Shown one piece after another: positions 19 through 13,484 of a stretch of 13,484 nucleotides of DNA. The position numbers and the translations under genes were made by a program. The stretch comes from a virus. Lineage: Duplodnaviria; Heunggongvirae; Uroviricota; Caudoviricetes. The stretch lies in the IMG/VR virus record IMGVR_UViG_2737471832_000007; one strand, written 5' to 3'. Position 1 is the first letter of the stretch, and every line of letters starts with the position of its first letter. The notes under the pieces were generated by a model. That model was not told the origin of the DNA, did not search any database, and saw only the letters and a program-made list of their open reading frames with translations.

Positions 19-813
19 TCAAAATCGGTGGAGCTGCATGACAAAGTCATCGGGCATTATCTGAACATAAAACACTATCAATAAGTTGGAGTCATTACCG
101 CTGTGTTTAACATGTTTTTTGATATATGATTTATTTTTTAATGCCCAAGAAACCGAATGCGTATATATGCTATCAAAACAATGTGATACATCTAACATCC
201 ACATCACCGAGAATCTTTTCTCAAGCTCAATAAACATCTTACTTTGAAATAGTTTATATATCCTGTTGAAACCGCCATAACTAAAATAAGAGGATGAATA
301 TTTCCTCATTAACTCATCCTTTGTTGTTTCGATATCTTCCCCTTTATATTTTTCCAAAGCATTATTTTCATATAAAAAGAAAGAGTTAGCGACCTTACGT
401 GGGTAGCGAATAGAAAAATTACTTTTTAAAGTATTTAATGTGATAACGGATGAGTATGTTTTATAAAATTCCGAATAATTAATTTGAGATCTTGGGTGAA
501 TTAAAGAAAGATGTCTTTGGCTAAAGGCATCTTTTACTATACAATAGCCAAATGGGGAGCTTTGTTTCTTCTTTTCTCGGTGGCGATCTGCGACACTAAT
601 AGAAGAGTCTAAATTAGGGTTAACTATTTTTTTTAAGAAAGAAGAAACCGGAGTAAAATGTAACAAATCATTACAAACTCTATCATATTCTGTTAAGTTT
701 ATATATAAGCCATCATTTGAAAAAATAATTGGACAATCACCGGGCAGTGTATCACATAGTAAAGCCCTGAGATAATCTTTCTTATCAAGTTTAATGTTTT
801 TCTTTATAACCAT
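19..813 (-). CDS. RT-like protein 2: RT fingers and motif A only; possibly a truncated or frameshifted second reverse transcriptase
   Basis: ATG at 813 overlaps the 3' end of the upstream RT gene by 10 nt. Residues 91-107 CIVKDAFSQRHLSLIHP resemble RT domain 1; residues 206-216 MLDVSHCFDSI (coords 166-198) match RT motif A. No motif B or C before the TGA at 19-21. AT-rich. Confidence 0.5.
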   Translation of the reverse strand: MVIKKNIKLDKKDYLRALLCDTLPGDCPIIFSNDGLYINLTEYDRVCNDLLHFTPVSSFLKKIVNPNLDSSISVADRHREKKKQSSPFGYCIVKDAFSQRHLSLIHPRSQINYSEFYKTYSSVITLNTLKSNFSIRYPRKVANSFFLYENNALEKYKGEDIETTKDELMRKYSSSYFSYGGFNRIYKLFQSKMFIELEKRFSVMWMLDVSHCFDSIYTHSVSWALKNKSYIKKHVKHSGNDSNLLIVFYVQIMPDDFVMQLHRF

Positions 814-2081
814 ATTTTTGTAATCTCAGTATAGCGCTTAAAGTTATACTTTCTATATACTCTATCCACAAAGCCTTTTCTAAAACTATTTCTTAGCAGT
901 TCTTTTTTTTGCTTCAAATTAAAAGGTTTTTTTGCAACACTATTCAAACGCCCAGTATTAGATTGCACACAATATAGCAAAAAGTCATCTAATTTTTTTA
1001 GGGATATGGAGTCAACATCTAACTTCGCATTACTGTAATAAATACCTGTACTTATCTTGCTTTTTTCTAAAGAACTTAACGATTTTATTTTGCGATTTAA
1101 ATCCCTGTTACTAGTCAAAAAAGAAATCCTGTCTAGCAATAGTTTAAAATCACCATTAATATGATAAGAGTAGAAAGACCTAGCTATTCTTGTTTTAATT
1201 TTCTTCAGGCGAGATTTAGATAAATTAACAACAACCTTTCTGTAACAGCTATTAATCTCACCATCTTTGCTCAAAGGTGTGTCTATTATAGAAAACGAGT
1301 ACCCTAGAAAGTCAAATTCATGAAGCAATTTATCCTGTTTATTTAAACCCTTACTTCTCTTTGGTATGCATGGAGATATTTTTAATTTATTTTTATTTAA
1401 AGCCAATCCCTTTGGTAATACATCTTGTATAAATTCCATAAAGGACGCTTCACATTCACAACCACTTGAAACGATTACCATATCATCTACAAATCTTGAA
1501 TAATAAAATACTTCTGGATGCCTATGAATACTATTATCAAATTGTGCCAAGTACAATTCTGATAACATAGGACTAATTTCTAACCCTCTAGGTAATCCTT
1601 TCGAAGAGTGAAGCCTTTCACACGATTTAAGATACCATTCTAGCAAATTTTTTGTATGTCTAGACAGTCGTGTTTCGTTATGTAAGAGCTGAAAAAGCTG
1701 CGGTAAATCAATTGATTCAAAGAAAGACTTTATATCCAAACGATATATTTTGAATGGAGTACCTTCTTCCAAATAAATTTTAAGCTCACTAATTATTGTA
1801 TTTCGTTGTTTGGGACGAAGCGATTCAAGGCATTTTAAATTTGCATTGCAATGTCTAAGTATTATTTTTTCCTTCAAACATGAAGCAGTGTAAACGCAGC
1901 GTCCCTTAATATTTAGTTTCTTTACACTCACACCAGAGCGAAAATTCTCATTAGCAATTAAAACGGCATCACTAATTAATGATTCTAACTCAGCAACATT
2001 ATTTTTTTTAAAATAATAAGCCTTCTCACTTTCACTTAAGTTTCGTTTAAGTGCTGCTGAAGTAAACGGCTGACGGTTCAT
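804..2081 (-). CDS. Reverse transcriptase (defence-associated UG/Abi/DRT-like), 425 aa
   Basis: ATG at 2081 with GAGGG Shine-Dalgarno. Motif A LDIKSFFESI (coords 1710-1739), motif B GLPRGLEISPMLSELYL, motif C FVDD (coords 1482-1493), FLGY motif at residues 258-261, plus a ~165-aa C-terminal extension. No retron VTG motif and no maturase domain. Confidence 0.8.
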   Translation of the reverse strand: MNRQPFTSAALKRNLSESEKAYYFKKNNVAELESLISDAVLIANENFRSGVSVKKLNIKGRCVYTASCLKEKIILRHCNANLKCLESLRPKQRNTIISELKIYLEEGTPFKIYRLDIKSFFESIDLPQLFQLLHNETRLSRHTKNLLEWYLKSCERLHSSKGLPRGLEISPMLSELYLAQFDNSIHRHPEVFYYSRFVDDMVIVSSGCECEASFMEFIQDVLPKGLALNKNKLKISPCIPKRSKGLNKQDKLLHEFDFLGYSFSIIDTPLSKDGEINSCYRKVVVNLSKSRLKKIKTRIARSFYSYHINGDFKLLLDRISFLTSNRDLNRKIKSLSSLEKSKISTGIYYSNAKLDVDSISLKKLDDFLLYCVQSNTGRLNSVAKKPFNLKQKKELLRNSFRKGFVDRVYRKYNFKRYTEITKIWL

Positions 2082-2129
2082 AATACCCTCATTAAACTAT
2101 CCTCTGTACTTTTTATAGCTCTTTCCATC

Positions 2130-2428
2130 ACTTCCCGCAATCGTATCTCCACAACAGCGACCGCTTTATATAGTAATTTTCATAACTTCGATTACAGCTC
2201 AAAACATGCGGTAACCGTGCCATAGTTATACCATTCAACGCCCTTACGCGGGCAGCCCCGCACGCCTGCCCGCTTCGCTTAACAGACTGGTTTTCATGCA
2301 TGCCATAAATCGTCTCAGATACCACCACACAAAGGTTTTCGCCTCAAAAAGGGTGCATAAGACTCATGCATTTTCATGCGCCATAGACATGCACTCATAC
2401 GCTCTCAGGCCAGCCAGGGAAAAGGTGT
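2130..2428 (-). ncRNA. Candidate structured noncoding leader or template RNA upstream of the RT gene (hypothetical)
   Basis: About 350 nt with no convincing ORF between the delta terminator and the RT start. Contains a perfect 8-bp GC stem (2248-2255 pairing 2266-2273), a CATGC-rich motif cluster and an imperfect ~19-bp direct repeat (2291-2309 and 2371-2389). Confidence 0.25.
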
Positions 2429-2455
2429 TAAAAATCCCGGTACTCGACCGGGATT
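2429..2455 (-). terminator. Intrinsic terminator of the late operon
   Basis: Stem ATCCCGG/CCGGGAT (2434-2440 pairing 2448-2454) with a 7-nt loop, followed on the minus strand by TTTT; sits ~20 nt after the delta stop. A T7 run at 2465-2471 on the plus strand may give bidirectional function. Confidence 0.5.
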
Positions 2456-2475
2456 ACGTGGGCGTTTTTTTCTAA

Positions 2476-2748
2476 TCAGACAGGAATCTGCTGACGGCTT
2501 GACAGTTTTGACGCGGAGCCATAGCGATTGAGCGTTTGCTGTTGTTTTACCGGGGGTTGTGATTTGTCTGGTTCCTGTTCATTGCGCCGGGGTTTCATGA
2601 TTATCTTATCCACACTCTCCAGTGCCGTAAATGTGCAGGAACATTCCAGATTCTGGCACTGATACCACGAGCGTTTAACTGACGGAGCTTCATAGGCTGC
2701 TGTTCTGGCGTGTGCAACTGTACCGCATTCCGGACATTTAAGTGCCAT
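2476..2748 (-). CDS. delta: Ogr/Delta-family zinc-finger late-gene transcriptional activator
   Basis: Exact C-x2-C-x22-C-x4-C spacing (CPEC...CQNLEC), the Ogr/Delta finger. ATG at 2748 with GGAG upstream; the ORF-track start at 2757 is a GTG extension. About 90 aa, single domain. Confidence 0.8.
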   Translation of the reverse strand: MALKCPECGTVAHARTAAYEAPSVKRSWYQCQNLECSCTFTALESVDKIIMKPRRNEQEPDKSQPPVKQQQTLNRYGSASKLSSRQQIPV

Positions 2749-2753
2749 TAATA

Positions 2754-3305
2754 TCACTCCTGTATATCGTTAATGTCATTCAGGCGTTGCTGAAAACGCA
2801 GATGTTGTGCCGGGGTGTAAGAACCCTGGCAATCACGAATCATCCCGGGGTCAGGCATCAAACCGGATTCATCCAGGATCTCACGATAATCCCCAGCAAT
2901 TTCAGGCGGTGTTATTGCCAGCTGGCGAACCAGAGCACTGCGTAATATACGGGACGCAACGTCAACCCCTCCGCGCCCCTTCAGGAACGGAGCCAGTGCA
3001 GATGTCAGGGCTGCCCCATTCGCCTGCATAAAATTGCTGAGAGCGGCTTCTGTGCAGGCCTCCATCAGTAAATGCTGCGAGTAAATGCATTCGCGCGCAG
3101 CACAGTTAATTTGCCATTTCAGCACATCCAGACGTTCCCGCAGTAATTCGAGCTGTCGGGCATAATCTGCTGGTTTTTCTGTGGCAGCGAGGAGAGATGT
3201 TATCTGTTGTTCAACGGCTTTTCGGCTCTCATTATGTCCGGCCCACAGAATGCGGGCATTCCGAAAACTGGTAAGTGCCTGGTCAGGCGTGCCTCGGGCC
3301 GTCAT
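2754..3305 (-). CDS. psu: Polarity suppression protein Psu homologue
   Basis: 183 aa. Segments LDVLKWQINCAARECI, FMQANGAALTSALAPFL and YTPAQHLRF resemble P4 Psu as recalled. Strong AAGGAG Shine-Dalgarno; ATGA overlap with the upstream ORF. Confidence 0.75.
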   Translation of the reverse strand: MTARGTPDQALTSFRNARILWAGHNESRKAVEQQITSLLAATEKPADYARQLELLRERLDVLKWQINCAARECIYSQHLLMEACTEAALSNFMQANGAALTSALAPFLKGRGGVDVASRILRSALVRQLAITPPEIAGDYREILDESGLMPDPGMIRDCQGSYTPAQHLRFQQRLNDINDIQE

Positions 3306-3619
3306 ACTGCTTTCTCCTTCTCAGCAAGTTCCTGACGAACCTTAATTTTATGCATAGCTGCCGGAGAGAGTTGATTACTGAAATCCAGACGCGCCGCATA
3401 ATCCGGGGCAACTCCCGCCAGTTTAAACACCGGGTCCTGCTCAGGCATCGCATCGTTAGCCAGAGCCGGTCTGGTGATATGTTTATGAATAAAGTCTTTC
3501 AGCACTGTGTCCGGGTCATTAACTGAATTCACCACACCCACAACGGCACTGGCTTCCCGGCCCATTGTGGATTTAAGCAGGCTCAGCGTCTGAATAAGCG
3601 CTTTTCCATGCGACTGCAT
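3302..3619 (-). CDS. Late-operon protein, unknown function (possibly the C-terminal part of a Sid-like protein)
   Basis: 105 aa; ATG at 3619 preceded by AGGAGG; stop overlaps the psu start (ATGA). Same reading frame as ORF 3629-4045, separated by one TAG and three codons. Confidence 0.6.
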   Translation of the reverse strand: MQSHGKALIQTLSLLKSTMGREASAVVGVVNSVNDPDTVLKDFIHKHITRPALANDAMPEQDPVFKLAGVAPDYAARLDFSNQLSPAAMHKIKVRQELAEKEKAV

Positions 3620-3628
3620 AAAATCCTC

Positions 3629-4045
3629 CTAGATTTGTTTTGCGCGAATATCCACAAGAATGTTATGCGCGTGGATATACTTTCCGGCTAATTCTGCAGC
3701 TTTCTGCGGCAAAAGTGCATTTTCGCTTTCCTGAGCCGCCAGCAGCTCATCAAAATCCTCAAGCGTTTCTCGTCCCAGCGCAATTTCCGTGCGCAGTTTT
3801 TTCATTTCCTTTGAGACCACGCCCTGACTTTCACGAAACAGCGTGCGCCACTCCTCATTCAGTGTGTTCGTCGTGGCTTCCATTTCAGCGCGACGCTGGC
3901 GGATTGTCGCAATATTATCCGCTGCCGCTTTCTGCTGACGACGTGCTTCAAGCCATGCGTTTCTGGCTGTGTTCATGGTTTCCAGTGCCCGCTGCGTTAC
4001 AGCCGGAAAAGTGGAAAGGTTGTTATTTACTGCGGTATTGTTCAT
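3629..4045 (-). CDS. First gene of the Delta-activated late operon; putative Sid-like protein
   Basis: 138 aa, helical/coiled-coil-like composition; ATG at 4045 with AGGAG 5 nt upstream; sits just downstream of two TGT-N12-ACA dyads. Position is analogous to P4 sid; identity not confirmed. Confidence 0.55.
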   Translation of the reverse strand: MNNTAVNNNLSTFPAVTQRALETMNTARNAWLEARRQQKAAADNIATIRQRRAEMEATTNTLNEEWRTLFRESQGVVSKEMKKLRTEIALGRETLEDFDELLAAQESENALLPQKAAELAGKYIHAHNILVDIRAKQI

Positions 4046-4079
4046 GACTTCTCCTGTCGGGTTGGTTCGTTACGTCAAT

Positions 4080-4135
4080 TGTGTCGTGGCTGACACAAGC
4101 ACACTATCGGTGTTCAGTGTGTGGTGGCTGGCACA
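4080..4135 (-). promoter_or_regulatory. Late promoter with two Ogr/Delta-type activator sites (TGT-N12-ACA)
   Basis: TGTgtcgtggctgacACA at 4080-4097 and TGTgtggtggctggcACA at 4118-4135, centres 38 bp apart, upstream of the ATG at 4045. Confidence 0.5.
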
Positions 4136-4223
4136 ACGGGCGCTTGCGGTTATTCAGACGTGGCTATGAAAGCCAGCCAGATAAAAATGCCCTCTGTTTC
4201 AGTCTGCTTTATGTCCCTGATGC

Positions 4224-4411
4224 GGTGGAACAGGTGAAACATGTGTTACAGCTTTGTTTTATAAGACATTTATATACACTGCACCGGTGAAACATCGCGG
4301 GTAACAAGGTGGAACAGCGGATTGGCTGGCGTTACATCTGTTCCACCTCACTATTTCAGAAGGTGGAACAGGTTCAGCCCTGTAAAATACGGTTGTTCCA
4401 CCTGTTTCACC
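4224..4411. repeat. Iteron cluster, crr/ori-like replication region
   Basis: Eight copies of GGTG(G/A)AACA: direct at 4224, 4233, 4286, 4308 and 4362; inverted (TGTT(C/T)CACC) at 4339, 4394 and 4403. Lies immediately downstream of the alpha gene; resembles the P4 TGTTCACC type-I iterons as recalled. Confidence 0.6.
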
Positions 4412-4445
4412 TGTTACCCTTAATAAATAAGACTCACGCAAAGCC

Positions 4446-7118
4446 TTAACCCGGCACCTCGCTGTTGAAGACATAGAGCCTGCGGGGATTCATCTCTGGC
4501 GGGCGAATGGTTGTCTGGAGTTTGCCATCAGTGGAGGGCAGCAGGTATCCACGATCTGCGCACAGACGCGCCACCTTGCGCGGGTCAAATCCCCTGCAGA
4601 TTTCTTTCCAGCCGGACGGCATGACATAGAACGTAGTGACAGCTTCCGTGCCCTGCGCGGTACTGCCTTTCTCCACCCTGCGCCAGCCCACCATATTGCC
4701 GGGGCGGTTGCGCTCGTCATACCAGTCTGCAAAGCGGCTGTACTGATTCGCGGTGAAGAAACTGCGAACCTGCTCCAGTGCGGCGATATCTTCCTGATTG
4801 GCGGTGTGCCCGCGATCTTTCAGCCATGCGTTCAGGCAGACGCGGGTTGCCCGCAGTGCTTCACCCTCAGGCCAGCCGGTGATACCCAGACGGGTTGCCA
4901 GTTCACCTGCCATCGCCACCAGAGCAAAGCGGTTCACAGCCCGGCCCACCTGATTGCCTGCATCTTTCGGAGTCAGGGCGGCAGCATATTCCTTCATCAG
5001 CGATTTTGCCTGTGCCGTTAGTCCGTTAAGATCAGCGGTCAGTGCTTTCAGCCACTCCCGGAACGGCGAACCGTAGTAGCAGGACGTGGCCCATTCAAGA
5101 TGCTCTGCCAGAGCCTTGCCGCTGTCGAAGCCGTGCAGCTCCTCAAAAACGCCAAACTTCCCGGAATCGCTGGGGATCTGGATCATCCTGACTTCCATCC
5201 CGGCAAAAGTACGCTCACCGGCCTTTGCCGCATGTTCGGTCAGAGACAACTCGCCAGTTGAAAAGAACAACAGGCGCCACTGCTTACGGGTACGCAGCTC
5301 ACCGTCCGTACCGGCACGGCCCTTGCCCTGACCGTTTGCCAGCATGTAGGCGATATTGCCTGCCTCGCGTCCGTCAACTTCCCGGATCTCATCAAGCATC
5401 ATGGCGGCATCGTTGCGGCGGCTGGCGCATCCCTCCAGCGCGTTGCCGGTGGCCCGCCATGTCTGCCAGTAGTCAGGCCCGCCGCAGACGGAGGTTGCCG
5501 CTTTCATGGTGGTGGTCTTACCGTCTGTCGATTCCCCTTTGAGGTGGTAGCCGCCGCCGTCCATACCAACCAGCCGTAACAGTGGTGCAGCAAAGGCCAG
5601 GCTGACAGCAAATGCCACGCGGGAGTTGCCGGTACAGTAGCGGGATACATGCTCCCGCCATTCCTCTGTTGTGCCCGACACGCGGAAATCACGCCCCTGC
5701 ACGGAAGTGGTCTGGAGAATGACACCCTCTGCACCTTCACCGCTGACCTCATCCTGCAGGACGTAAACCTGACCATGCCAGCCAGTACGACTGACGCAGG
5801 TCACGCGGCGTTCCGGTTTACACAGTGAGATATATTCCATCAGGCGTGCGCGTGCCTCACCGGTGGTGCTGATATAAGACAGCCCGTTAACCAGCAGTAC
5901 CCGGCGCAGTTCCTCACCACTGCCGCTCAGCATTTCCATCGGCATCGCCCAGCGGCGACACTCACCCCACGTATCTTCCCATTCCAGCAGTCGTCCGAAG
6001 TTACCGCCATCGGCATCGCAGGTGATTGCCGTCACGCGCAGCGGGCTGCATATTTTGACGTTCTGGATCTCCGTCTCACCGTTGCGCTGTACCTGCTTTT
6101 CATACCAGAGATATTCCTGGGTAAGACGGAACCCGTGCGGCAGTTGCGTGCGGCCTTCCCCGCACAGTACCAGACCGTTGCGAAAGGCTTCACGGGCACG
6201 GGTAATACCGTGCTCCCGATGAAAGTCATTCCAGTCAGCCTTAATCTCTCCTGGTGGCAGCGTCATCCAGCCGCCAACAGCTTTTGCCGCCCGTTCAGCA
6301 AAGGCTCTGCCGGGATTCTCACCTCCGTCCTGAAAATCGTTATCACCGGCGATGATAATTTTTACCTCAGGCCAGCGTGCCCGCAGCGACTGCGCCACAT
6401 TGGGCAGGTTGCCCGCAGATATGGCAGCCACTACGCATCCGGCAGTGAGCTGACTTACCGTCAGCGCCGTAGCGTAACCTTCGGTAATCACCACCTGTAC
6501 CGGTGGTTCAGACGGTAACGGGCTGAGCGACACAAACGCGCCTTTCATCGTGCTGCCGGGCAGTATGCTTTTTTCACCCGTCGGGGCGATAAGCTGTGCA
6601 CCAGTCACGGCTCCGGTGTTGGTCGTGAGTGGTAACAGCAGGGAACCGGCAGGAAAATCCTTACCGCTGATATGCTGCACGCTTCCGGTCAGAGAGGCCG
6701 GGTATCCGGCGAACCCTTTTCCTGTCAGATAGGCGCTTTCTCCCGTGTGGCTCTCTTTCATCAGCGCCGCCACGGTAAGACCCATGTCGCGTTTAGGGGC
6801 TTTTTGTCTGGCAGGCTTAACAGGCAGTTCCTGCACATCCGGCACATTAAGCACCTGCGCCACCTCCTGCGCAGCCTTTCTGATGCTGTAACCGGTTACG
6901 AGCTTAACCAGATCCAGACCGTCACCATTGCCACACTGGCTGCAGATCCACGTCCCGCGCCCGTCAAGGTCATCAAGGCGAAAACGATCCTTGCCCCCAC
7001 ATTTCGGGCAGGGACCGTGCCTGCCGTTTTCAGGTACATCAATACGCAGCATCTGGAGAATAACGGGCCATTTCCCCCGTGCGGCGGCTGAAATCTGCGT
7101 AACCGTCTGTATTGTCAT
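4446..7118 (-). CDS. alpha: Alpha-type DNA primase-helicase (zinc-binding N-terminus, primase, D5-like helicase)
   Basis: 890 aa. N-terminal CPKCGG...CSQCG zinc motif, GKT Walker-A-like motif, and overall resemblance to P4 alpha. ATG at 7118 in an ATGA overlap with the upstream ORF. Confidence 0.85.
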   Translation of the reverse strand: MTIQTVTQISAAARGKWPVILQMLRIDVPENGRHGPCPKCGGKDRFRLDDLDGRGTWICSQCGNGDGLDLVKLVTGYSIRKAAQEVAQVLNVPDVQELPVKPARQKAPKRDMGLTVAALMKESHTGESAYLTGKGFAGYPASLTGSVQHISGKDFPAGSLLLPLTTNTGAVTGAQLIAPTGEKSILPGSTMKGAFVSLSPLPSEPPVQVVITEGYATALTVSQLTAGCVVAAISAGNLPNVAQSLRARWPEVKIIIAGDNDFQDGGENPGRAFAERAAKAVGGWMTLPPGEIKADWNDFHREHGITRAREAFRNGLVLCGEGRTQLPHGFRLTQEYLWYEKQVQRNGETEIQNVKICSPLRVTAITCDADGGNFGRLLEWEDTWGECRRWAMPMEMLSGSGEELRRVLLVNGLSYISTTGEARARLMEYISLCKPERRVTCVSRTGWHGQVYVLQDEVSGEGAEGVILQTTSVQGRDFRVSGTTEEWREHVSRYCTGNSRVAFAVSLAFAAPLLRLVGMDGGGYHLKGESTDGKTTTMKAATSVCGGPDYWQTWRATGNALEGCASRRNDAAMMLDEIREVDGREAGNIAYMLANGQGKGRAGTDGELRTRKQWRLLFFSTGELSLTEHAAKAGERTFAGMEVRMIQIPSDSGKFGVFEELHGFDSGKALAEHLEWATSCYYGSPFREWLKALTADLNGLTAQAKSLMKEYAAALTPKDAGNQVGRAVNRFALVAMAGELATRLGITGWPEGEALRATRVCLNAWLKDRGHTANQEDIAALEQVRSFFTANQYSRFADWYDERNRPGNMVGWRRVEKGSTAQGTEAVTTFYVMPSGWKEICRGFDPRKVARLCADRGYLLPSTDGKLQTTIRPPEMNPRRLYVFNSEVPG

Positions 7119-7498
7119 ACTTCCCCCTGATACAACGTCACACCGGTACTGCAGAAGTCATCAAAGGCCGCCGGAAGCGTGCGGTACATCTCCGCCATCA
7201 CTTCACAGCCGCGCGCGGTCAGTACCGGCGGCGCGGTCAGCAGTGACGGCTCCAGCATGTCAGTCAGCAGTGCCAGCGCGGCAGCGGCGCCCTGTGCTTC
7301 GCCGTACTCGTTAATCAGTACGCACTCGATATGCAGCGCAATGGCCATTTCAATACGCTCCACCGTCAGGCTGTGCGGACCATACTGATCACTGCCAGTT
7401 TCGTTCAGCATTTTCTGCCGCCATGCTGAAGCAATAGCCCGCCGGTAAAGCGCGGTGGTCATTTCTGCCGGGAAAATGGAAACCTGCGGCTGGTTCAT
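7115..7498 (-). CDS. Early-operon hypothetical protein
   Basis: 127 aa; ATGA overlaps at both ends (coupled to the upstream ORF and to alpha). Confidence 0.55.
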   Translation of the reverse strand: MNQPQVSIFPAEMTTALYRRAIASAWRQKMLNETGSDQYGPHSLTVERIEMAIALHIECVLINEYGEAQGAAAALALLTDMLEPSLLTAPPVLTARGCEVMAEMYRTLPAAFDDFCSTGVTLYQGEV

Positions 7499-7779
7499 CT
7501 GGCACCTCCTTCAATCAGTGCGCAGCTGTGTGCAATATCCGTCAAATCTGCCAGCAGGTACTCCATCAGCGCGGCGACACCATGCGCACAGCCAGTGTCC
7601 AGTGCTCCGGCCTGAGACGGGTATTCAGAAAAGAGAAGCTGGAGCATGTCGCAGGCATTTCTTGCGCGGGTCAGCTTTCCGAAACTGTCCTCTGACAACC
7701 CATAGGCAAAAACACCGGTATTGTGTTTTTCAGGCAAAGTGTGGCCCTGAGCACCGTTGTGCCCGTTTGAAATATTCAT
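7495..7779 (-). CDS. Early-operon small protein (possibly epsilon-like, by position and size)
   Basis: 94 aa; ATG at 7779 with GGAG upstream. Assignment is positional only. Confidence 0.5.
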   Translation of the reverse strand: MNISNGHNGAQGHTLPEKHNTGVFAYGLSEDSFGKLTRARNACDMLQLLFSEYPSQAGALDTGCAHGVAALMEYLLADLTDIAHSCALIEGGAR

Positions 7780-7810
7780 CGTGGATTACTCCGTTTTCAG
7801 CGGTATTGTG

Positions 7811-8170
7811 TCAGAGAAACTTTGAATAGTGACCGTCATCAGGCTCAGCAGAACGCCATATGCTACGCTCCCGCCAGCGGATAAATAGCACAGACGGATG
7901 CAGTGTCAGCGGGCCGGAACCACTACCGCCTGCAGGAGCTGGTGCAGGCTTAAAGAGCGGTACATCAAACAGGCGCGTATATCGCTGTTCAAACCATGCC
8001 AGAGGGCAGGAAGAAAGCTGGTTGTCGCTGTCATGACGTATCAGCACTTCACAGCTGAATTCAGGATTAACCAGCGCCACAGAGGGCGAGGCTTCTATTA
8101 ATCGGATAATCGTGACCGTCCAGCCACGTTCATGCTGCCAGCGTTCGCCGGGATGCGGATAATTACGCAT
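7811..8170 (-). CDS. Early-operon hypothetical protein
   Basis: ATG at 8170 preceded by GGAGG (MRNYPHPG...). The ORF-track start at 8200 is a non-ATG extension. Confidence 0.55.
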   Translation of the reverse strand: MRNYPHPGERWQHERGWTVTIIRLIEASPSVALVNPEFSCEVLIRHDSDNQLSSCPLAWFEQRYTRLFDVPLFKPAPAPAGGSGSGPLTLHPSVLFIRWRERSIWRSAEPDDGHYSKFL

Positions 8171-8339
8171 GTTCACCTCCGCAGGGAATGCGCCCGGCAA
8201 AGCTCAGTACATAGTCCGGGGCAAGTCTGCGCCGCGCTGACCGCTCGTTATCTGCGGTGATCCTTAACATCACAGGACGGGCATTGCGTTGACTGCGGTT
8301 GATCGCCGCAAATAACCAGGTACACTTCTGTTTAGCCAT
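8163..8339 (-). CDS. Small first ORF of the early operon (58 aa), unknown function
   Basis: ATG at 8339 with AAGAGG upstream; TAA at 8163-8165 overlaps the next gene's ATG (ATGCGTAA). Below the ORF-track size cutoff. Confidence 0.4.
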   Translation of the reverse strand: MAKQKCTWLFAAINRSQRNARPVMLRITADNERSARRRLAPDYVLSFAGRIPCGGEHA

Positions 8340-8367
8340 CTTCGTTACCTCTTATAACGGTTGGTTA

Positions 8368-8402
8368 AATGCCCGATTTGTGTTCCCGCACAATCGGGCA
8401 TT
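8368..8402 (-). promoter_or_regulatory. Long stem-loop in the early-operon leader
   Basis: AATGCCCGATT (8368-8378) pairs perfectly with AATCGGGCATT (8392-8402), with additional inner pairing; lies between the divergent promoter region and the first early ORF. Confidence 0.35.
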
Positions 8403-8428
8403 GCTTTTACAAGCGAACTATACTTACA

Positions 8429-8474
8429 ATGGTAATTACCATGTAGTCATCATATTCTAGGGTAATTACCATGT
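8429..8474. promoter_or_regulatory. Two palindromic operator sites in the divergent promoter region
   Basis: Perfect 14-bp palindrome ATGGTAATTACCAT at 8429-8442; second copy GGTAATTACCATGT at 8461-8474 overlaps the RHH start codon. Spacing is 30 bp. Confidence 0.5.
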
Positions 8475-8644
8475 CAACACCACAAGAGAAACGTTCTCCA
8501 CCATTCCAAATGCGTCTTACCGACGATTTTAGGTTGCAACTCGAAAACGAAATGCGCAAAGATGGAGATAGCGCGTTGGCAACTTGGATTAAAAGAATTT
8601 TACGCAAAGAACTCCAATCACGCGGGATTGACCCTAAAGGCTAA
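8471..8644 (+). CDS. Arc/MetJ-type ribbon-helix-helix DNA-binding protein (57 aa)
   Basis: FQMRLTDDFRLQLENEMRKDGDSALATWIKRIL matches the Arc-like RHH pattern. ATG at 8471 with AGGGT upstream, TAA at 8642-8644. Not in the ORF track because it is under 60 aa. Confidence 0.55.
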   Translation: MSTPQEKRSPPFQMRLTDDFRLQLENEMRKDGDSALATWIKRILRKELQSRGIDPKG

Positions 8645-8676
8645 TCAGTTAAATATTACTAACTATCAATTAAGGC

Positions 8677-8967
8677 TTAGGGAGTAGGTGATAATCTATT
8701 CCCTTTATTAATTGCTCTTGCCTTATTTCTCATCCCCTCAAACTGTTGACCTGAGTTTTCTTCAAACCCATCTCGCCACTTATAATAATCAGCAGCGCGC
8801 CATCGTGACATCCGACCTATTTTTATAGGTTTTGGAAAGCGATTCAGAGAAATCAATCGATAAATCCATTTATCACTTAATAAACAATCGGAAGTAATAA
8901 ACTTCATATCGATCAGAGAATCCATTGAAGGTCGTTGCAAAGTAGTATTATCATGTTTAGATAACAT
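8677..8967 (-). CDS. AlpA-family phage regulatory protein / Vis-like DNA-binding protein
   Basis: WIYRLISLNRFPKPIKIGRMSRWRAADYYKW matches the AlpA HTH and FPKPIK signature. ATG at 8967 with GGAG upstream; an internal start at 8925 or 8907 is possible. AT-rich. Confidence 0.7.
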   Translation of the reverse strand: MLSKHDNTTLQRPSMDSLIDMKFITSDCLLSDKWIYRLISLNRFPKPIKIGRMSRWRAADYYKWRDGFEENSGQQFEGMRNKARAINKGNRLSPTP

Positions 8968-9092
8968 TCATCATTCTCCGTTTATCTAAGTCTATTGGCT
9001 TCAACACGGAAAATTAAAACATAGGTTATAAATGAGAAAAATGTGACTAATGAAAAAAATTCAAAATCATTAGCCACAACAATTGTTAATAT

Positions 9093-9917
9093 TTAGTTAA
9101 ACTTAATGTTTTTCATGCAACTACGTAGCAAACTAACAACAGTATCATAGCTCAAAGGCGGTTCTCCGGTCTTAGGCCAGAACTCACTGGCATGTTGAAA
9201 AAGATAATCAGCTATCGCTGCTGGACTCTCTCTTCTTAGCCTCATATCACGATGATAGAGCGAAATAATAGCCATGAGTATTTCAGCTCGAGGAACAGCA
9301 TGTTTTTGTTTTTGCGCCTCAGATTGTGATTTATATTTATTGGCGTTTTTTATCCGCTTTTGTTCGCATAAGACTATATCAATGAATTTTTGAATCTGTA
9401 CCTTTGTAATCCACAAAACCTCAAAAAGATAATAATTTTCTTTTTCATCATAATTTACATAAAGAATTACCTTACAATTTATATTAGGCGTACCCGCCAG
9501 TAGAAAATGAATAGGCCAGGAATCCGGTTGCCCCTCATGCTTAACTAACAGATCTTTATATTCATAATCAACAGCCCATAAACCGGATATGAAGCATCGA
9601 ATAAAACCATTTTTATCAATTAAATTATCTTCATCAGGGATTCTTATAGAACTTAAGTCTGACAACATAATATTGCCATTTCTATCTCGTGGTAAATATT
9701 TCAGATTAGATAAGAACTCATCTATTTGACCATCAATCTTCAAACCACATGAAACATCATACTCATCATCATGGAATTCCATGCATAGCTCTACATCTCG
9801 TTCTCTGGCAAACCAGAGTATATCCTTTTCACTACAACCAATTTTTTCTGAAGCTTCATCCAACTGGTAGTAATCTCTGAGCAGAGAATCAGTATTATTA
9901 ATTTTTAAAATATTCAT
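9093..9917 (-). CDS. Unknown 274-aa protein translationally coupled to the integrase
   Basis: ATG at 9917 overlaps the int stop (ATGA). AT-rich; possible N-terminal HTH-like stretch (EKIGCSEKDILWFARE). No recognisable family. Confidence 0.6.
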   Translation of the reverse strand: MNILKINNTDSLLRDYYQLDEASEKIGCSEKDILWFARERDVELCMEFHDDEYDVSCGLKIDGQIDEFLSNLKYLPRDRNGNIMLSDLSSIRIPDEDNLIDKNGFIRCFISGLWAVDYEYKDLLVKHEGQPDSWPIHFLLAGTPNINCKVILYVNYDEKENYYLFEVLWITKVQIQKFIDIVLCEQKRIKNANKYKSQSEAQKQKHAVPRAEILMAIISLYHRDMRLRRESPAAIADYLFQHASEFWPKTGEPPLSYDTVVSLLRSCMKNIKFN

Positions 9918-11104
9918 TTATGAGTACCAATTTGCTCAGATAAATAATTAGCATACCATTGCATCATTTCTCTTCTCCCTTCGAGATATTGGGCATGGTT
10001 ATAAATTCCACGAATAGAGTTTTTGTCCGAATGAGCAAGCTGGGTTTCAATCCAAGCGCTGTTAAATCCTTTCTCATGTAGGATTGTACTCATCGTATGC
10101 CTGAAACCATGCCCCGTAACACGCCCTGCATATCCAATACGTTTAAACACCTGATTAATGCTTGCTTCACTCATAAATTTGCTGGGATCGTTGCGTCCAG
10201 GGAACATCAGCGGGTAGTTCCCAGTTAGTTCTTTCAAACTTTTGAGATGGGATAATGCTTGTTTTGACAACGGGACAATATGGCTCCTACGCATTTTCAT
10301 ACGTTCTTTTGGGATCTCCCACACCGCATTATCAAAATCCACCTCTCGCCACTCACCTGCTCGTAGTTCTCCAGTTCGTAGACCTGTCAGGATAAGTAAA
10401 TGCGCCCCCAACAATACAATTGGACTTCCTGAATAAGAATTAAGGGCATTAAAGAACTCCGGTAGTTCGTTGGCTTTGAGGAATGGATAGTGGACTGCTT
10501 CATGTCCTTGCATCGCACTGGCAAGATCCGGTGCCGGATTGTAGATTGCCCTACCCGTTACGATGGCATAGCGAAAAACTTCACCGCATCGCTGACGGAC
10601 TTTCTTCGCTTTCTCCATAGCGCCTCGAGCTTCTATCAACCTCAGAACTTCAAGCAGTTCAAGGGGCTGAATATCAGCTATAGGTCTGTGCCCAATATGC
10701 GGGAAAATGTCTTTCTCGAATGCCTCAATGATGTCGGAAGCATAGCCCTCAGACCATTTGGGTGATTTCATTTTGTGCCACTCTAACGCCACTTCTCTGA
10801 ATGGGTTAAGTGTCTCACTCGCTGCATTTAAAGCCTGCTTTTTGGCTTTTTTGACTTCGCCGGGATCTTCACCTGCTGCGAGTAGTTTCTTCGCGTCTTC
10901 TCGTTTTTGTCTGGCATCAGCAAGTGTGACTGTTGGATAAACACCAAAGGACAATCGTTTCTCTTTACCAGCAAAACGGTATTTCATACGCCAGTAACGC
11001 GAGCCATTAGGTTCGACCTGAAGGTATAGGCCACCTCCATCAAACAGCTTGTAGCTCTTCTCTTTTCCTTTCGCAGCTTCAACCTTGCGGGCATTCAGCA
11101 TCAT
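9914..11104 (-). CDS. int: P4-type tyrosine integrase
   Basis: N-terminal arm-binding signature (KLFDGGGLYLQVEPNGSRYWRMKYRFAGKEKRLSFGVYP); catalytic HGFRHT and GIYNHAQY motifs. Likely start is the ATG at 11104 (MMLNARK...); the ORF-track start at 11173 is a TTG extension. Confidence 0.9.
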   Translation of the reverse strand: MMLNARKVEAAKGKEKSYKLFDGGGLYLQVEPNGSRYWRMKYRFAGKEKRLSFGVYPTVTLADARQKREDAKKLLAAGEDPGEVKKAKKQALNAASETLNPFREVALEWHKMKSPKWSEGYASDIIEAFEKDIFPHIGHRPIADIQPLELLEVLRLIEARGAMEKAKKVRQRCGEVFRYAIVTGRAIYNPAPDLASAMQGHEAVHYPFLKANELPEFFNALNSYSGSPIVLLGAHLLILTGLRTGELRAGEWREVDFDNAVWEIPKERMKMRRSHIVPLSKQALSHLKSLKELTGNYPLMFPGRNDPSKFMSEASINQVFKRIGYAGRVTGHGFRHTMSTILHEKGFNSAWIETQLAHSDKNSIRGIYNHAQYLEGRREMMQWYANYLSEQIGTHK

Positions 11105-11180
11105 TGGGGGCACATTTCCTAGATCGAACAGAACATGCCCCTGATTGTGCCCCCAACCGCGTGTTGATTTCAAGAGACAA

Positions 11181-11254
11181 GGGTTGACCTCAAACGTATG
11201 AAAACAACGTAATATATATGTTTTTAAATGATTTTGTTGATGTGGGTTGACTTG
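11181..11254. repeat. Direct repeats GGGTTGAC(C/T)T between int and the att core (candidate Int arm-type sites)
   Basis: GGGTTGACCT at 11181-11190 and GGGTTGACTT at 11244-11253. Confidence 0.3.
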
Positions 11255-11268
11255 GGAAAACTAGGTGA

Positions 11269-11314
11269 TGGTGCCGATAATAGGAGTCGAACCTACGACC
11301 TTCGCATTACGAAT
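11269..11314 (-). tRNA. Partial tRNA-Thr(CGU): 3'-terminal 46 nt only (att core, not a functional tRNA)
   Basis: Reverse complement reads ATTCGTAATGCGAAGGTCGTAGGTTCGACTCCTATTATCGGCACCA: anticodon loop with CGT, T-arm, acceptor 3' strand and CCA. The 5' D-arm and acceptor half are absent upstream. Confidence 0.7.
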
Positions 11315-11618
11315 TATAAGAATCCGCTTCTAATTCAAAGCATTACCCCATCAACACTGCGCTCACAAGTCCCACCACATCAAAACATGTAAAGCCTTGC
11401 AAGCCATTGCTAGGCCTTATGTGTCTCAGTTTTGTCCCACTACGACCCGCATAACCAATAAGAAGATTGCAGTGATGTCAAACGACACAGCAGCCTTCTT
11501 TTCCTTCATACTTTCCCCACCCAGCATGCATACCTTCTACCATAACTGTAGTGAATGTCTGTTATGAGCGAGGAGCGGAAGTTGGAATGCATACTTAAAT
11601 CGAGCAATTTTGAGTTAT

Positions 11619-11626
11619 GGGGGGGG
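11619..11626. repeat. Homopolymeric G8 tract upstream of the 384-aa gene
   Basis: Eight consecutive G at 11619-11626, about 30 bp upstream of a TATGAT -10-like hexamer (11655-11660). Confidence 0.6.
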
Positions 11627-11707
11627 CTGGTCAACCTACTGAATTGTTTTTGCCTATGATAACGGTCACAATCAACCTCTAAGTGTGCTGATTTGAAAGT
11701 GATTTCC

Positions 11708-12847
11708 ATGAAGATGACCAAGGCAGATTTTGGTGTAACTATTGATGATACTTTAATAACTGATTTTCGAGATGTGGTTAATGAAGGGGAGTTTGCTTAC
11801 AGCTACTTCATAAACAGAAATGGTAAAAACCAGTTCAGCCCTATCTGTTCGTGCATGGATTGGATAAGCGTTTCTGTTCGCAATCTGATGAACTTCCCTG
11901 AGCTGTCGGAAGATATTGATGTCAAGGCCATGCAGGTTTACTCCCTTATATCATCTATTGATATTGCTGTGGAGGCGTTGCAGCAGCTTCACCGCATCAT
12001 TGAGAGTGATGATAAGTTAGCGAGGTGGCCTTTCAAGAAATCAACGAATGTCTTTAAGAATAAAACGCCCTATCTTTCACATGAGGATGATGACGCATAC
12101 TTTAAGAGTATTCGAGCTATCTTTGGTGCTCACCCTACAAATCTTAAAAATAGTGATGGTGAGCGACTGTTTGCAAGCTGGCCTCATTTTCATGCTTTCA
12201 ATGAAAATGATTTCACTATAAGCCTTTACAACAACACGTCAGGGAAAGATGATGTTATTTTCGGCATTAAATTCGATGAGCTAATTACATATATTGAAGA
12301 TAGGTATAAATATCTAACAAGCCTAAAGGGTTCCGTAATAGCAATCCGTATAAAACATTACAGCACCCTATCCAAACAGATTATACCGTCTACTGATAAC
12401 ATTCATGCTGAGTTAAAGTTGCTTCTTTCAGAAGTTGCGGTGCGAGGTGATAACGATTATTACCGAATGGAAGTGGAAGAGTTAATAAAGTTGTTCGAGG
12501 GGAATGTTAAAGAGGCACATCTCAAGGATGAAGCTGACGTATTTTTAAGTAAACTACATCCAATTGCAGTAGAGATTAGATATAATCTTCAGGAAATGAA
12601 TATTGAGGATTTAGCAACTAAGCATGGCGTGTTGATTTCAACACTTCCGAAAAATGCCCTGCATTACGTTCTTCAGAAAATGTTTACTTGGCTCCACTCT
12701 GATAGATATGACCCAATGGGTGGCTTTTACTTGGACAAGTTAAATGAATATTCAGGCGGGCGATACAATTTTTGTTCTGAGGATGATGACAGTACAACTC
12801 TATTGAAGCTCCGGATGATGTTGCATTGGTATCATCAACAAAAATAG
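11708..12847 (+). CDS. Orphan 379/384-aa protein of unknown function (possible Abi/HEPN-like; unconfirmed)
   Basis: Long AT-rich ORF ending TAG at 12845-12847. ATG at 11708; the ORF-track start at 11693 is TTG. Contains an R-x5-H stretch (RAIFGAH). No family recognised. Confidence 0.6.
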   Translation: MKMTKADFGVTIDDTLITDFRDVVNEGEFAYSYFINRNGKNQFSPICSCMDWISVSVRNLMNFPELSEDIDVKAMQVYSLISSIDIAVEALQQLHRIIESDDKLARWPFKKSTNVFKNKTPYLSHEDDDAYFKSIRAIFGAHPTNLKNSDGERLFASWPHFHAFNENDFTISLYNNTSGKDDVIFGIKFDELITYIEDRYKYLTSLKGSVIAIRIKHYSTLSKQIIPSTDNIHAELKLLLSEVAVRGDNDYYRMEVEELIKLFEGNVKEAHLKDEADVFLSKLHPIAVEIRYNLQEMNIEDLATKHGVLISTLPKNALHYVLQKMFTWLHSDRYDPMGGFYLDKLNEYSGGRYNFCSEDDDSTTLLKLRMMLHWYHQQK

Positions 12848-13144
12848 GCTTAGCCACGAAAACAAGCAATACAGTTGGAAGTTCGTGTGACCTATGCGCT
12901 AGGTATTCTGAGACGACAGTGTGACCTGCTCCCTGTTGATTAACATAGGCTGACACTAGCAACGTCCTCTACTGGCACATAGCAGCCCCAGAGACAGTGG
13001 TGTAAAGTCATGGAGGGTCGGTGGGAGGATATTCAGTTTCATTCATGCCGAAATACGGTAAAATCTATAATAGATGGAAATCATTCAATACTCGCACTAA
13101 AGTCCACCATCCAGCCGCAGCAAGTTCTTGCATACGACGTGTCT

Positions 13145-13172
13145 GCGGGTTCAACTCCCGCCAGCTCCACCA
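13145..13172 (+). other. tmRNA (ssrA) 3'-end-like fragment; possible second att core
   Basis: GCGGGTTCAACTCCCGCCAGCTCCACCA matches the 3' terminal T-arm and acceptor of enterobacterial tmRNA as recalled. No tmRNA 5' domain or tag reading frame upstream. Confidence 0.45.
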
Positions 13173-13302
13173 ATCATGATTGGACGGTGTAAGGACAACA
13201 CCAATAAAAACAGGAAGTTAGCAGTCTCAGCAGGACACCAACCAGACGGTGAGCAGACAAAAAAGGATACGCAAAGGAGCCGCGGCTCCCAAGTGACATG
13301 AA

Positions 13303-13325
13303 AGCCCGCATCTGCGGGCTTTTTC
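13303..13325 (+). terminator. Intrinsic terminator
   Basis: GCCCGC (13304-13309), loop ATCT, GCGGGC (13314-13319), followed by TTTTT. Confidence 0.55.
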
Positions 13326-13484
13326 GTTTCATCTGCAAAAATGTCTATACATCAGCTGCCACAAACGGAACAACAGCCTTTATTGATGTAAGCGTCGTCT
13401 CAGCACCGTCTGGCAGATCCTGAAATTCCTGAGAGAATAGTGGACACCAAATATGGTGGACGCTATCCATGAAATCATTAACCG

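Follow-up and report, generated by a model that had tools for sequence, protein, structure and literature searches.

A 46-nt tRNA-Thr fragment beside a P4-family integrase as a probable junction of two integrative elements at thrW

A P4-type element that integrates at a tRNA gene normally has its integrase gene (int) directly behind the intact tRNA. In the DNA analyzed here (IMG/VR virus record IMGVR_UViG_2737471832_000007, 13,484 nt, all of which we call the window), such an int is preceded by only the 3′ part of a tRNA-Thr gene. Is this fragment a damaged tRNA, the attachment site of the P4-type element itself, or the border of a second element? A preliminary description, made from the letters of the window, took the fragment to be the att core of the P4-type element and proposed that the sequence to its right was either another element inserted at the same tRNA or a rearranged junction. 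Our analysis indicates that the fragment is very probably the internal junction of a tandem array in which two independent integrative elements occupy thrW.

The tRNA-Thr fragment upstream of the integrase

The plus-strand letters at positions 11269 to 11314 of the window are TGGTGCCGATAATAGGAGTCGAACCTACGACCTTCGCATTACGAAT. Their reverse complement is the exact 3′-terminal 46 nt of the 76-nt E. coli thrW gene for tRNA-Thr(CGU), taken from a complete E. coli chromosome (L004:15235-15310) and called there by both ARAGORN and RefSeq. The match breaks exactly at 46 nt, where the next upstream base is A in the window versus C in thrW. Allowing up to 3 mismatches, the motif still occurs only once in the window, against a chance expectation of none.

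A functional tRNA-Thr is a cloverleaf of ~76 nt with an acceptor stem, a D arm, and an anticodon arm; the fragment holds the 3′ 46 nt only. ARAGORN found 0 tRNA genes in the whole window, and Rfam, searched on the window at E ≤ 1, gave no tRNA match. As the preliminary description had said, the 5′ portion of the tRNA is missing. The fragment with its flanks did not fold better than shuffled sequences (z = 0.26).

The features on the int side of this junction are as follows.

9914-11104, minus strand: P4-family tyrosine integrase, 396 aa from the ATG at 11104 (Pfam and homology to P4 Int)
11105-11268, minus strand: P arm of the satellite, the int upstream region, with two GGGTTGAC direct repeats and weak promoter-like sites
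11269-11314, minus strand: 46-nt 3′ thrW fragment, read here as a hybrid att junction (exact thrW match; identical to the SfI “attP core”)

The fragment and the integrase ORF (9914-11173) both lie on the minus strand, with the fragment upstream of int and 164 nt from its ATG. The observation that only the 3′ 46 nt of a tRNA-Thr is present, with int downstream in the same orientation, was therefore accurate. Upstream of the ATG the ORF stays open as far as a TTG at 11173, and RefSeq starts identical genes at the ATG equivalent to 11104. The Pfam domains Arm-DNA-bind_3 (PF13356), Phage_int_M (PF22022), and Phage_integrase (PF00589) all scored above cut-off, and the protein is 43% identical to P4 Int over 409 aa (E = 3e-103). 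The core of P4 targets leuX. In the P4 genome (NC_001609), int is preceded at a distance of 152 nt by a 20-nt attP core, and arm repeats lie in the interval. The arrangement in the window is alike: core and int share an orientation, the core lies upstream at ~150-165 nt, and the spacer holds short repeats (the GGGTTGAC copies at 11181-11188 and 11244-11251).

The satellite and its DRT3 cargo

All satellite genes lie leftward of the fragment on the minus strand, in the order int, a 274-aa ORF, an AlpA-like HTH gene, an icd-like region, a gene for a DUF5375 protein (so annotated in the RefSeq copies of the satellite), primase, Sid-like, Psu, Ogr/Delta, drt3a, and drt3b. From the left end of the window, the features are as follows.

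1-99, no strand: IS1 terminal sequence interrupting drt3b; in reverse complement it agrees with one end of the IS1A annotated in L001, the genome with a more divergent satellite
100-9917, minus strand: P4-like satellite body (Pfam, PADLOC, PHROGs, tblastn with P4 proteins, and RefSeq annotation of 99.9-100% identical copies)
100-813, minus strand: truncated Drt3b (PADLOC)
804-2081, minus strand: Drt3a (PADLOC)
2476-2757, minus strand: Ogr/Delta (Pfam Ogr_Delta, 58.2 bits)
2754-3305, minus strand: Psu (Pfam Psu, 152.7 bits)
3302-4045, minus strand: Sid-like gene, 247 aa, with an in-frame stop (PHROG 6165 match of the intact homologue in L003)
4446-7118, minus strand: primase with Zn-ribbon, Toprim, and DUF927 domains (Pfam Zn_Ribbon_Prim, Toprim_3, and DUF927)
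8677-8967, minus strand: AlpA-like HTH, weak (Pfam AlpA, 20.6 bits versus a cut-off of 21)
9093-9917, minus strand: 274-aa ORF beside the satellite int, with no Pfam, PHROG, or PADLOC match

The published core set of P4-like satellites comprises int, psu, delta, sid, alpA, epsilon, and alpha (PMC8628076), and both psu with delta and an alpha-type primase were found in the window. The satellite Psu is 30% identical to P4 Psu (tblastn), and the primase is 38% identical to P4 alpha over the first 311 aa of alpha only. PHROG 6165, matched by the intact Sid-like homologue, is described as “polarity suppression Psu-like”, the product name that RefSeq gives to P4 sid. In tblastn searches of the satellite at 1e-3, P4 Sid gave no match, nor did P4 epsilon and ORF88. 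A P2/P4-type cos (GGCGAGGCGGGGAAAGCAC, ≤3 mismatches) was found neither in the window nor in the full-length satellite of WCHEC025970 (L006); a divergent cos is possible.

The element resembles P4 in its integration at a tRNA 3′ end and in the presence of Psu and Delta genes, a putative Sid-like gene, and a primase. It differs from P4 in gene order: here all genes are co-oriented and att lies between the defense hotspot and int rather than between alpha and int. It also differs in that the helicase part of the primase is DUF927, the cargo is DRT3, and the P4 cos was not found. The likeness to P4-like satellites with defense hotspots (PMC8628076; PMC13586616) is close. These too are small int/psu/delta/sid/alpha elements with an anti-phage system, and in the circular map DRT3 occupies the variable region between int and psu/delta. 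There is no essential difference, and the window copy is a partly inactivated instance of this type.

Similarity to intact satellites begins at window position 100. The Drt3b ORF covers profile positions 2-218 of 651, and because the IS1 in drt3b leaves only this N-terminal third, the DRT3 system of the window copy is probably inactive. In the Sid-like gene, a SNP at 3630 changes a W codon to a stop at 3629-3631; the intact copy in XJW9B277 differs from the window at just 4 of 11,215 nt, and this SNP is among them. The window copy of the satellite is decaying, as the IS1 in drt3b and the nonsense codon in the Sid-like gene attest.

Some minor features of the satellite may be recorded here. A weak Rfam match to the SymR antitoxin RNA lies at 8334-8405 on the plus strand (31.6 bits against a gathering score of 61, E = 0.01), flanked by the AlpA-like gene and the icd/cI-like region, and is probably due to chance or to a hairpin; a match to the P4 cI-region ORF lies near it, at 8184-8321 on the minus strand. 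In the more divergent variant, L001, about ten tandem 9-nt units (GGAAGCATG/GGAAGCACG) are found in the distal arm at 8946-9053, between the far att repeat and drt3b.

The prophage end and the nested att cores

To the right of the int-side arm, the sequence has a different origin. Many E. coli genomes have, without the integrase, a region that shares 99.5% identity with positions 11269 to 13329, and the similarity breaks exactly at the fragment. The features that bear on the junction are the following.

11269-11292, minus strand: nested ~24-nt satellite core, in tRNA sense GTTCGACTCCTATTATCGGCACCA (repeated at the far end of the satellite, outside the window)
11293-11314, minus strand: 22 nt of tRNA sequence belonging to the prophage core only and absent from the far junction of the satellite (junction alignment)
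11315-11439, no strand: attP arm of SfI-type phages, forming the phage side of the prophage attR (identity to free phages and to ETEC4073)
11708-12847, plus strand: gene for a 379-aa hypothetical protein, attR-proximal cargo of the prophage (RefSeq WP_000784327.1; same position in L001 and L002)

Shigella phage SfI has exactly these 46 nt immediately behind xis-int, under the annotation “attP core” (L011:2501-2546). The free Shigella phages SfI, SfII, SfIV, and SfV all carry the identical 46 nt in a region annotated as attP, and the 125 nt contiguous with the core in the window (11315-11439) are 95-97% identical to their attP arm. In alignment, SfI attP proved to be two halves joined: the int-side arm found beside thrW at the attL of ETEC4073 (L002), and the arm in the right flank of the window. 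The attR of ETEC4073, which holds the prophage only, has an arm identical to 11315-11439. This agrees with the report of a 46-bp att site at thrW for SfI, SfIV, and SfV (PMC3851460). The published P22 attP site ATGCGAAGGTCGTAGGTTCGACT (quoted in bioRxiv 10.1101/2020.10.05.325894) also lies inside the 46-nt segment, where it takes in the nucleotides at 11293-11314 and reaches 8 nt into the satellite core.

The ORF of the 379-aa gene is open from 11693 (384 aa), and the protein had no Pfam, PHROG, or PADLOC match. In both L001 and L002 this gene is followed by a type II restriction-modification (R-M) system and lambdoid tail genes. The 384/379-aa ORF and the 274-aa ORF flank the junction, both in cargo positions beside att sites. 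The right end of the window is an IS end 2.2 kb from the fragment, and the window includes the last ~2 kb of the prophage. From the homologous genomes, we infer that the source genome carries the prophage body and an intact thrW.

Several observations concern the outer part of this flank. Positions 13145 to 13329 (plus strand) consist of the last 28 nt of ssrA (tmRNA) and ~155 nt of ssrA-downstream sequence, ending in a terminator-like hairpin, and are 91-94% identical to the ssrA locus of many E. coli. They resemble an ssrA-type att remnant in the attR-proximal cargo of the prophage, in the orientation opposite to the thrW fragment. Similarity to most relatives stops right after this segment, which may mark a module boundary. 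From ~13388 to 13484 the sequence is 100% identical to an IS3-family transposase/IS66-associated annotation on E. coli plasmids. The window looks like a short-read contig with a repeat at each end (IS1 at the left, an IS end at the right).

One possibility for the missing 5′ part of the tRNA is decay: beside a normally integrated satellite, a deletion, IS activity, or an inversion would have removed the first 30 nt of thrW. The window copy does carry IS sequence at both ends (IS1 at 1-99, an IS end at ~13388-13484). However, the point of the break is the exact edge of the 46-nt SfI attP core, and 125 nt of SfI attP arm follow. The rearranged junction that the preliminary description had offered as its alternative is very unlikely given this coincidence with an annotated core.

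Another possibility is that the fragment is the satellite's own attP in a free form (excised, plasmid, or packaged), with the right flank as the other end of the satellite. P4, too, has its attP core ~150 nt in front of int and no complete tRNA there. Yet the true far end of the satellite is known: it consists of drt3b, a P′ arm beginning aataacttaac, and yagP′, and it is unrelated to the right flank of the window, which is an SfI-type attP arm followed by prophage cargo. In addition, we searched for a joined satellite attP (P arm, core, P′ arm) as an in silico proxy for excised circles, and found none in IMG/VR, in JGI metagenome contigs, or in complete E. coli genomes including their plasmids. 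This explanation is almost certainly wrong.

Two candidates were rejected. Three IMG/VR contigs with the int-side arm were considered as free satellite forms; all are provirus predictions that span the same tandem junction. Phage phi458 (OP434518), a 99.9% match to the right flank, was considered as attP evidence, and the other side of its core (L010 449-537) is the host yagP′ flank. This “complete phage genome” was evidently delimited from a prophage and carries attR plus host DNA.

The near-identical copies of the satellite give its own boundaries. In XJW9B277 (L003), a direct repeat lies 12,890 nt away (18 nt exact, or 24 nt with 1 indel), and the same ~24-nt repeat occurs in WCHEC025970 (L006), where the satellite occupies the canonical site. 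In both copies the element is bounded by direct repeats, the 24-nt repeat adjoins yagP′, and this far junction keeps only TGGTGC(C)GATAATAGGAGTCGAAC, 24 nt of which 18 are exact. In the more divergent satellite L001 the far repeat is 17 nt.

Because the attP of the free phages takes in the full 46 nt and the far repeat of the satellite only ~24 nt, we read the 46 nt as a shared junction. On these alignments, the whole segment appears to be the attR core of the neighboring prophage, and its terminal ~24 nt appear to double as the attL core of the satellite. The claim that the 46 nt are the att core of the P4-type element thus holds for the terminal ~24 nt, which serve the satellite, and fails for the full length, which is the core of the prophage. 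Each element would be bounded by its own pair of core copies. The satellite Int is unrelated to the SfI-type Int apart from a 60-aa catalytic motif, and two unrelated tyrosine integrases thus appear to use overlapping, nested targets in the 3′ half of thrW.

The far att repeat itself is polymorphic (L003 6279-6303, L006 1781-1797, L001 8846-8862). WCHEC025970, XJW9B277, and PRO_A-1462 lack the second C of TGGTGCC, which H22, MLI105, TF5, and GPEC60-12-649 have. The 1-nt deletion could be an attP variant or a mutation after integration. As a marker for the order of events it was discarded, since it is polymorphic in both genomic contexts and hence uninformative.

Tandem occupancy and order of arrival at thrW

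The closest complete genome is NZ_CM136166, which is 99.5% identical to the window across the junction. Its order is proA, thrW, an SfI-type int, a 46.6-kb lambdoid prophage, the 379-aa gene, the 46-nt fragment, the P4-type int, DRT3, the ~24-nt repeat, yagP′, and paoD. Intact thrW lies 46.6 kb from the fragment, and the prophage Int beside it is 99% identical to SfI Int. Genomes such as this, in which an SfI-type prophage separates intact thrW from the fragment, support the earlier suggestion of a tandem island at the same tRNA. Further copies of the core, which the preliminary description had advised looking for, were found in related genomes, and in the window no intact tRNA adjoins the fragment.

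Both states of single occupancy exist as natural genomes. ETEC4073 (L002) has the prophage without the satellite. There the 46 nt abut host yagP′/paoD; past them come the 379-aa gene, the type II R-M system, a GIY-YIG gene, and a lambdoid prophage, which ends ~23.8 kb further with its integrase beside intact thrW and proA. In WCHEC025970 (L006) the satellite directly follows intact thrW and differs from the window at 6 of 11,215 aligned positions. In XJW9B277 (L003), where the context is tandem, the difference is 4 SNPs in 11,215 nt. Near-identical satellites are therefore found in both canonical and tandem contexts.

To count the junctions we used 446-nt queries at 80% coverage, which required both sides to match, against 5,426 complete E. 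coli genomes. The int-side arm of the satellite was joined to intact thrW and proA in 51 of them. In these genomes int directly follows the intact tRNA, the normal arrangement that the preliminary description had stated for P4-type elements. The same arm was joined to the 46-nt fragment and the SfI-type arm in 17 genomes, which are phylogenetically non-independent. The reverse order (thrW, satellite, 24 nt, SfI-type prophage) was seen in 0/5,426, with one distal-arm variant queried. The recurrence of the same junction in 17 genomes and three IMG/VR contigs, together with an intact thrW further along in the comparator genome, further argues against a rearrangement.

These data point with high confidence to the following array, in tRNA orientation: thrW, an SfI/P22-type prophage, the 46 nt, a P4-family int with its ~12.9-kb DRT3 satellite, the ~24-nt repeat, and yagP′/paoD.

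How could such an array have formed? Most likely, we infer, the satellite came first and the phage second. The satellite would have entered thrW in canonical mode, rebuilding the tRNA from its own core. An SfI-like phage would then have integrated into the rebuilt thrW of the resident satellite, moving the intact tRNA ~46 kb away and leaving a 46-nt copy beside the satellite int. In a satellite carrier, only intact thrW would be open to the phage, because the far repeat of the satellite is without most of the 46-nt core. This order is favored because of the 17:0 asymmetry between the two arrangements and because SfI has been shown to integrate in tandem at the attL (intact thrW) of a resident SfX (PMC3306764).

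The same structure could also have the reverse history, with the prophage resident first and the satellite integrating into the attR copy of the prophage rather than into intact thrW. Integration there would yield the same sequence, since the 46-nt attR holds the whole 24-nt satellite core and keeps its native downstream flank. Prophage-only genomes with a 99.5% identical attR region are common, and satellites only 4 SNPs apart over 11.2 kb (the window and XJW9B277) have different right-hand neighbors. However, both intact thrW and the attR copy would be open to a satellite that arrives in a lysogen, and insertion into the intact thrW at the prophage attL should then also be seen. With one distal-arm variant queried, the resulting order was found in none of the 5,426 genomes, against 17 cases of the other. 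The experimental precedent also has the newcomer using the intact tRNA (PMC3306764). Arrival of the prophage first is possible, though we consider it unlikely.

In such an array, each element would still be separately excisable. SfI-type Int/Xis would recombine thrW/attL with the 46-nt attR and restore thrW followed by the satellite int. Similarly, recombination between 11269-11292 and the far repeat, by the P4-type Int and an AlpA/Vis-like factor, would restore the prophage-only attR.

A more speculative reading is that the ~24-nt core nested in the 46 nt acts as a one-way stacking site, at which a phage enters only on the tRNA side of a resident satellite, the crossover region of the phage being absent from the far repeat of the satellite. 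We regard this as doubtful. If it were true, the 17:0 asymmetry would be a mechanistic rule that records the order of arrival, and the arrangement could tie P4-like satellites physically to lambdoid prophages that are not their helpers, for instance by co-excision or lateral packaging.

The closest known parallel is the SfI/SfX tandem at thrW in Shigella flexneri (PMC3306764), where two elements are likewise arranged head-to-tail, with proA/thrW on one side, the downstream host gene on the other, and a copy of att at the border between them. In contrast to SfI and SfX, which share a core, the second element here is a P4-like satellite with an unrelated integrase and a nested core of ~24 nt. 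The prophage end is like SfI, SfII, SfIV, and SfV, with P22-type integration at thrW (PMC3851460; NC_027339), in its identical 46 nt and its 125-nt arm (95-97%). It is unlike them in that the arm-side cargo is the 379-aa gene, with the R-M system next in relatives, rather than gtrA/gtrB/gtr(type), and in that the other side of the core in the window is a satellite rather than host DNA. Our literature search on P4-like satellites at thrW found nothing.

The arrangement is an ordinary one, and its parts were already known: tandem thrW occupancy (PMC3306764), the 46-bp core (PMC3851460), defense-carrying P4-like satellites (PMC8628076, PMC13586616), and the int-att geometry of P4 (NC_001609). No new biological principle emerges from it. 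As a case, it illustrates how two unrelated integrases can share one tRNA 3′ half and how the order of elements in a tandem array can hint at the order of their acquisition. In annotation, the 46 nt should be labeled as a shared att junction (prophage attR plus satellite attL), and neither as the att core of the satellite nor as a damaged tRNA; the boundaries of the satellite are the ~24-nt repeats. One point is usefully corrected: the 46 nt are part of the att site of the prophage, and the ~24-nt core of the satellite is nested inside.
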